64,000 bases of DNA. Source: Escherichia coli. Lineage in GTDB: Bacteria; Pseudomonadota; Gammaproteobacteria; Enterobacterales; Enterobacteriaceae. This document shows, in pieces, positions 32,227-32,524 of the stretch. The notes below the pieces were generated by a model, which ran no database searches, had not been told where the DNA came from, and worked only from the letters and a program-made list of their open reading frames with translations. A program made the position numbers and the translations under genes. Numbering within the stretch: position 1 is the first letter of the stretch; the number at the start of each line of letters is the position of its first letter. Location of the stretch: assembly GCF_045037415.1 (NCBI RefSeq), contig NZ_CP173438.1; one strand, written 5' to 3'.

Positions 32227-32524
32227 GACATCCTCCGGCTTTTAATGAATTCATGTTCCTGAGGGGGACTTCTGCCAGTAATTAACCTGATACCCCCAAT
32301 GCACCCCTTGTATAACAAAGATGTTGTTGAAAGCCGTTGTTATATATCATATTTTACCAATTATGGGGGTGCTGATATTTCAATAGGAAATAATACCCCC
32401 TAAAGTACCCCCAAAAGCAACTTGATACGGGGTGAAGTCGGTTGACTTCTGGATACAAAGGAATCCTGATACACAAGGGATTAGAAGGGGGGGTTGACAT
32501 CGGGAGAGTTCAGAAGATGTTAAT

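Follow-up and report, generated by a model that had tools for sequence, protein, structure and literature searches.

Arm-type integrase-binding sites have been textbook material since phages lambda and P4, and the arm repeats of P4 go back to Pierson and Kahn (1987, J Mol Biol 196:487). The phage P4 record (NC_001609) carries six features named "attP arm sequence repeat" together with an annotated att core; the repeat features are sequence-based annotations, and the repeat reads (A/G)TGCCCCC(A/T).... For lambda Int, arm-type sites P1, P2 and P'1-P'3 are described alongside IHF sites (Ross and Landy 1982, as cited in PMC2951348). The integrase IntS of ICEMlSymR7A has five arm sites, P1-P5, with the consensus TGKTGGTATC in a 283-bp attP, and all five are needed for integration (PMC11963761). 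Several integrases also act on their own genes: IntL of EDL933 represses its own promoter about 4-fold on a fragment spanning -273 to +70 (PMC2951348), IntI of the selC island PAI I536 strongly represses PintI, in a region that IHF binds as well (PMC7286903), and P4 Int is cited in the latter paper as repressing Pint. In these repression studies of EDL933 IntL, PAI I536 IntI and P4 Int, the integrase sites were not mapped.

Here we compare with these systems a locus in a 64,000-nucleotide stretch of Escherichia coli DNA (the window), where an integrase gene (int) faces selC across an interval that contains several copies of TACCCCC (Table 1). Going by sequence, these motifs are very probably arm-type integrase-binding sites on the int-proximal (P) arm of a P4-family attP at selC. 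The feature is of an ordinary, well-understood kind and would not surprise a specialist.

Table 1. Features of the attachment region. Positions are those of the window; offsets are counted from the TGG beginning the tRNA 3' end, for the island and for phage P4.
Feature	Position	Strand	Offset, island	Offset, phage P4	Details
AlpA-family small HTH protein, 77 aa	4666..4899	+			Pfam PF05930 Phage_AlpA, E = 2e-10
Integrase gene, P4-type tyrosine recombinase, 396 aa	31036..32226	-			ORF and Pfam domains
Extra repeat of phage P4				-453	One repeat, inside int
Candidate arm site P1a	32290..32301	+	-233 (ACCCCC start)		ATACCCCCAATG; extra site of the island
Candidate degenerate partner P1b	32302..32311	+	-222 (ACCCCT start, 32303)		CACCCCTTGT; extra site of the island, 11 bp after P1a
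Candidate inverted arm site P2	32361..32372	-	-160 (GGGGGT)	-161 (GGGGGC)	TTATGGGGGTGC on the + strand
Candidate arm site P3	32392..32403	+	-130 (ACCCCC)	-132	AATACCCCCTAA; first unit of 12-bp tandem doublet
Candidate arm site "P4" (not the phage)	32404..32415	+	-118 (ACCCCC)	-120	AGTACCCCCAAA; second unit of doublet
Repeat class TTGAY/TGGAT, ~10-bp spacing	32419..32472	+			TGAT 32423, TGAA 32433, TGAC 32443, GGAT 32451
selC (tRNA-Sec gene)	32525..32619	-			ARAGORN; Rfam RF01852, 83.8 bits; intact; integration target
Core (crossover) region	32525..32548	.			TGGCGGAAGATCACAGGAGTCGAA; selC 3' end, repeated at distal island end
IHF-type site			+32 (exact)	+31 (one mismatch)
Tandem units, far side			+77, +89	+77, +89

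The setting is that of an integrated element. A Tia-type genomic island of about 45 kb lies to the left of selC, with int on one side of the tRNA gene and yicJ and yicI on the other; selC stays intact, and in strain 219 a 24-bp repeat of its 3' end is found at the far end of the island. Positions 1-36645 of the window are 99.6-100% identical to the strain 219 island, bar one extra ISEc45 copy in the window, and positions 28000-38500 are 100% identical to strain IPCEC48, which matches around selC but lacks collinearity with the window's left part. Besides the IS copy, a segment at 36.6-43.9 kb sets strain 219 apart from the window. This segment (36645-43900, between yicI and yicH) holds a cluster of a PTS fructose-type transporter, an aldolase, ROK and a BglG antiterminator, which is present in about 1,600 E. 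coli genomes and missing from strain 219. In strain SK1144 the selC site is empty and island-free, and an intact rhuM gene adjoins selC directly (L118, 44349-45533); only a rhuM pseudogene is left beside selC in strains 219, BL21 and O104:H4. Part of a further tyrosine integrase, next to an IS1 copy, occupies 26367-26549, about 4.5 kb inward from int; this suggests that two elements have accreted to make up the island, the selC-proximal module comprising int, a TPR protein, a phosphoethanolamine transferase and tia.

The original prediction had listed four strings as carrying the motif between int and selC, namely GATACCCCCAATG (32289-32301), TTATGGGGGTGCTGA (32361-32375), AATACCCCCTAAAGTACCCCCAAAAG (32392-32417) and GATACGGGGTGAAG (32424-32437), and all four are present. 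Exact TACCCCC occurs three times within 32291-32412 (at 32291, 32394 and 32406). The inverted copy, GGGGGTG at 32365-32371, reads CACCCCC and is a near-copy, not the exact complement of TACCCCC, so the conserved unit is YACCCCC. These four copies stand; the fifth, GATACGGGGTGAAG, has to be taken out of the set, as it varies freely between genera and belongs to a class of repeats with a 10-bp period. To the list can be added a degenerate copy that it did not contain, CACCCCTT (32302-32309), in which CCCCTT is conserved in the arm alignment; this is the element of P1b, the weakest member, which we infer to belong with the arm sites. Outside the interval, TACCCCC is found only three more times in about 63.7 kb, both strands included, so nothing like the same density recurs elsewhere in the window. 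The shorter ACCCCC is found five times in 32292-32494, and the whole window has 11 observed against 18 expected.

Such within-window enrichment was considered as proof of the motif and rejected: the window contains 12 clusters of three identical 7-mers within 125 bp (mean of 1.8 in shuffled sequences), and a heptamer triplet is unexceptional once all 7-mers are counted. Since the within-window statistics are weak, the claim that the arrangement exceeds chance rests on comparative evidence, which is very strong.

One comparison is with phage P4. The two layouts superimpose within 2 bp, the integrases are homologous, and both elements integrate at the 3' end of a tRNA gene; the counterpart of P3 in the phage is GATGCCCCCAAT at -132, and in both a further class of repeats, with a 10-bp period, lies between doublet and core. 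They differ in the repeat unit, which is TGCCCCC in the phage and TACCCCC/AACCCCC (YACCCCC) here, one base apart, and in the target, which is leuX in the phage and selC here. They differ also in the distance from the int start to the doublet, which is 16 nt in phage P4 but about 165 nt in the window, where the extra space holds the -233/-222 pair; P1a lacks a counterpart in the phage because the int start of P4 is closer to the core. YACCCCC is a sequence variant within the P4-family attP architecture.

The integrase has a separate N-terminal arm-DNA-binding domain (Pfam PF13356, Arm-DNA-bind_3, residues 3-88, E = 7e-29), which is followed by a central core-binding domain (residues 100-193) and a catalytic domain (residues 206-371), both also assigned with Pfam. 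Its N-terminus matches PDB entries 3JU0 (E = 7e-31, residues 1-97) and 3JTZ, whose titles show them deposited as "Phage integrase" and "Integrase / CP4-like integrase", and which we take to be the solved arm-binding domains of HAI7/HPI. Over its full length the protein is 44% identical to phage P4 Int, and it is 96% identical to the integrase found at the same selC locus in O157:H7 strain ATCC 43890. The match to the P4 layout, the Arm-DNA-bind_3 domain and the recurrence of the geometry at many tRNA genes, described below, together lend support to the proposal from which we started, that the repeats would be arm-type integrase-binding sites.

The distal end of the island lies outside the window, and the distal arm was read from the near-identical islands of strains 219 and IPCEC48. 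In strain 219 the core is repeated directly over 24 bp, TGGCGGAAGATCACAGGAGTCGAA, at 13739-13762 of L002; a 24-bp selC repeat has also been reported in a study from 2018 (Gut Pathog 2018; PMC6174562). The distal selC repeat of IPCEC48 is shorter (TGGCGATCACAGGAGTCGAA), and it is without 4 nt (L119, 1790-1812; TGGCGATCAC... vs TGGCGGAAGATCAC...). A tandem doublet, GTAACCCCCATAAGAACCCCCAAATG (ACCCCC-N6-ACCCCCAAA), begins 77 nt after the first base of the selC repeat in strain 219, with its two units 12 bp apart and oriented as in the doublet of the window, and the distal arm of IPCEC48 is identical to it. The motif therefore does occur at the distal boundary, where it had been suggested that one should look for it. 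It is absent from the 24-bp core itself, which it flanks on both arms. Across seven diverged distal arms (O104:H4, BL21, Nissle, A22 and others), 27 of the 32 positions of the doublet block are invariant, as compared with 14 of the next 63 positions downstream. An exact IHF consensus, AATCAAAACATTA, lies on the minus strand between the core and the distal doublet (+32..+44), and its consensus bases TAA....TTGAT are invariant in the same seven arms; the P arm shows no IHF consensus with one mismatch or fewer.

The sites on the int side are conserved as well, both in seven E. coli variants and in fifteen selC-type arms from Photorhabdus, Yersinia, Trabulsiella, Pseudocitrobacter and other genera, and the conservation in related islands that had been foreseen thus holds. 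Across the fifteen arms, the P1a sequence CTGATACCCCC is conserved and the P2 sequence ATTATGGGGGT is invariant.

How far the arrangement extends beyond selC was examined with the pattern ACCCCCNWAWGNACCCCCAAA in GTDB, using one genome per species (100,044 species). The doublet pattern was found at 101 loci, where about nine would be expected by chance as estimated from base frequencies, and about three quarters of these loci are P4-type attachment-site arms, at nine tRNA species and tmRNA. At 40 loci the doublet lies upstream of an antisense SeC, Thr, Leu, Ala, Arg, Cys, Val, Phe or Ser tRNA gene or a tmRNA gene, with a P4-type integrase on its other side that is 35-98% identical to that of the window. 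The gap from doublet to tRNA end is 109-112 nt in 30 of these 40 and 120-122 nt in a further six, whatever the tRNA; in the window it is 109 nt. Eleven further loci have only the integrase beside the doublet, and some 25 are of the distal type, in which a fragment of a tRNA 3' end starts 75-79 nt upstream of the doublet. The int start lies 20 to 240 nt from the doublet, whose own spacing to the tRNA end stays constant. An inverted GGGGGT is present upstream of the doublet at 42 of the 49 P-type loci, and in 32 of the 49 it is exactly 30-31 nt away, as in the window; an IHF-like site is found at -46/-47 from the doublet in half of the distal-type loci. Among the hosts are an acidobacterium and Gamma-, Beta-, Alpha- and Deltaproteobacteria. 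With the tRNA core, the host and most of the integrase sequence all varying around an unchanged motif, the pattern is what would be expected of a site read by the conserved N-terminal arm-binding domain, as opposed to anything particular to the core.

Variations on this arrangement were seen along the way. In two loci from MAGs, one of Rhodoferax and one betaproteobacterial (L027 and L090), a fragment of a tRNA 3' end lies upstream of the doublet, as in the distal type, and an integrase gene starts 19 nt downstream of the doublet and reads away from the core. Many of the elements at tRNA genes other than selC (L039, L044, L065, L071 and L075) have a GC-rich hairpin flanked by A/T runs at about 50-75 nt from the tRNA end. 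This hairpin sits between the two periodic arrays and is absent from the window and from phage P4; it looks like a terminator supplied by the element for a tRNA gene whose downstream flank was displaced.

A wider generalization, which we put forward tentatively and consider somewhat doubtful, is that a large clade of DUF4102/Arm-DNA-bind_3 integrases shares a near-universal arm code irrespective of the tRNA targeted, namely YACCCCC-N6-ACCCCCAAA doublets whose distance from the tRNA end is fixed (~110 nt for the int-side arm, ~78 nt for the far one). If so, both ends of an island could be found from sequence alone, and co-resident islands could share arm sites, such that their integrases might cross-repress promoters or form mixed intasomes; the A at position 2, against the G of phage P4, would then define separate specificity groups. 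About 1,150 E. coli genomes have a tRNA-Thr module that is a candidate for the YACCCCC-doublet type. Our literature search, which was incomplete, found no published statement of a family-wide TACCCCC consensus or of a fixed 110/78-nt geometry, and we claim no priority.

The second class of repeats deserves separate mention. Just past the P-arm doublet (32419-32472) there are four NGGAY/TAGAY/TTGAY units with a 10-bp period, and three more stand just before the tRNA 3' end (32493-32517); it is the TTGAY/TGGAT array that takes in GATACGGGGTGAAG, the fifth supposed copy of the original prediction. Phage P4 (L116) has a periodic array at the same offsets, with CGGA at 3973, 3983 and 3993 and AGGA at 4003, followed by a second array at 4046-4066. 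Periodic arrays occupy these offsets in about 20 other elements too, with a unit sequence that is specific to each element. The units may be binding sites for an excision factor (recombination directionality factor, RDF). As for the factor, the small AlpA-family protein encoded at 4666-4899 is, from the role of its family, a candidate for the excision factor of the island and a likely directionality factor.

The presence of that AlpA-family gene (4666-4899) raises the question of whether the tandem doublets could be sites of the island's own excision factor, an RDF of the AlpA/Vis family, instead of the integrase. Direct repeats about one helical turn apart are typical of RDF sites in the account given in PMC7498355, and the doublet units are 12 bp apart; we nonetheless regard the idea as unlikely. 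The YACCCCC motif lies on both arms, occurs in inverted form and includes the separate -233/-222 pair. RDF sites are normally confined to one arm. The motif is moreover the same across elements from several phyla whose integrases are 35-45% identical, and RDFs are small and fast-evolving (PMC10484663). A better RDF candidate is the element-specific 10-bp-periodic class that lies between doublet and core, and in the P4 record the counterparts of the YACCCCC units are annotated as att arm repeats. The profile of an RDF site, with helically phased repeats on one arm that are specific to the element, is thus not that of the YACCCCC motif. That the sites serve as operators for int transcription only, whether for autorepression or for another regulator, with no role in recombination, seems to us very unlikely. 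The position of the P-arm sites upstream of int and the documented autorepression of homologous selC integrases would fit such operators, but once the island is integrated, tens of kilobases separate the distal doublet from int, which it adjoins only in the excised circle, and its distance is fixed to the core and not to any gene. The spacing on the int side argues in the same direction, being constant between the doublet and the tRNA end and ranging over 20-240 nt between the doublet and the int start.

It is also conceivable that the G-rich and C-rich elements pair in the leader RNA of int as an attenuator hairpin. The inverted arms at 32361-32373 and 32404-32416 are 85% complementary, and premature termination in int leaders has been reported for ICEKp1, in a paper without arm-site data (PMC13023037). 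The minus-strand RNA, however, folds no more stably than shuffled sequences (z = -0.87), an Rfam search of the region matches tRNA-Sec only, and the distal doublet has no pairing partner; we rejected the RNA-structure reading on the fold score and the Rfam result, and consider it extremely unlikely. A chance cluster of a C-rich heptamer, finally, might be argued from the twelve triplet clusters in the window, but it is ruled out by the conservation of the motif, its reappearance at the far end of the island, the agreement with phage P4 and the 101 loci, which leave it with practically no probability.

If the motifs are arm-type integrase-binding sites, as we favor, the following picture can be drawn. 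The integrase would be heterobivalent, with its N-terminal Arm-DNA-bind_3 domain reading 5'-YACCCCC(A/T)(A/T)A-3' and its central and catalytic domains acting on the core at the selC 3' end. The excised circle would present, on the P arm, the -233/-222 pair, the inverted site at -160 and the 12-bp tandem doublet at -130/-118, and on the P' arm, the IHF consensus at +32..+44 and then the tandem doublet at +77/+89. Arm-bound Int, together with IHF bending at H', could bridge to the core and so build the intasome for integration; for excision, the same assembly would act jointly with an AlpA-type factor. With the island integrated, Int bound at the P-arm sites may also repress int transcription.

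Such repression should follow from the position of the P-arm sites upstream of int when the island is integrated, and the published autorepression of selC integrases agrees with the predicted binding of Int at the P arm. A sigma-70 promoter scan of the int (minus) strand located no sigma-70-like int promoter. The arm between int and selC in O157:H7 ATCC 43890 (L007, 1516-1758) has a deletion of about 103 bp relative to positions 32302-32404 of the window, which fuses P1a to the second doublet unit and removes the inverted site and one doublet unit; this may be linked to the weak (~4-fold) autorepression of IntL. Given that an arm without the inverted site and half of the doublet still goes with about 4-fold autorepression, not every site is needed for repression. 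In another O157:H7 locus, at Z1816 (L008, 1501-1702) near espF and IS remnants, there is a decayed P arm that reads TATCCTC, TACCCCC, TATCCTC and has no integrase; this decayed arm at the LEE end is a relic of an earlier junction.

The analysis yields a testable attP map in which the core is accompanied by four to five P-arm sites, one IHF site and the P' doublet. The map applies to the selC island family, of which the Tia island, SHI-2, AGI-3, PAI I536-like islands and the O157 933L/LEE junction are members, and it also accounts for the published autorepression of selC integrases. Used in practice, the doublet with its fixed distances flags each end of an island and tells intact arms from decayed ones, such as that of O157.

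Set beside other known systems, the locus shares with lambda a heterobivalent integrase, arm motifs that are distinct from the core and lie on both arms, a tandem P'-arm array with an IHF site between array and core, and RDF sites expected on the P arm. The arm-binding domain of lambda Int, however, belongs to another Pfam family, and the motif, the number of sites and their spacing are different, so that the likeness is one of homology in principle only. The KplE1 attL with its IntS/TorI system (PMC2951348) resembles the island in that the int promoter overlaps arm-type and RDF sites beside a tRNA gene and the integrase represses itself, but its integrase is of another lineage and its motif has a TAAA core. 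ICEMlSymR7A has a P4-family integrase at a tRNA gene, and the reverse complement of its consensus, GATACCAMCA, resembles GATACCCCCAA in sequence; its motif differs in having no run of five C, and its RDF is encoded far from int. Further relevant cases are the islands AGI-3/EPI-I (BEN2908; Chouikha et al. 2006) and GIselC17584/1. The relevant portion of PMC6174562 records 21-bp "direct repeats" at both of their ends, as repeats without an assigned function or integrase binding, and these are the same sequences as the sites described here, with TTTGGGGGTACTTTAGGGGGT near selC and TTTGGGGGTTCTTATGGGGGT at the far end.
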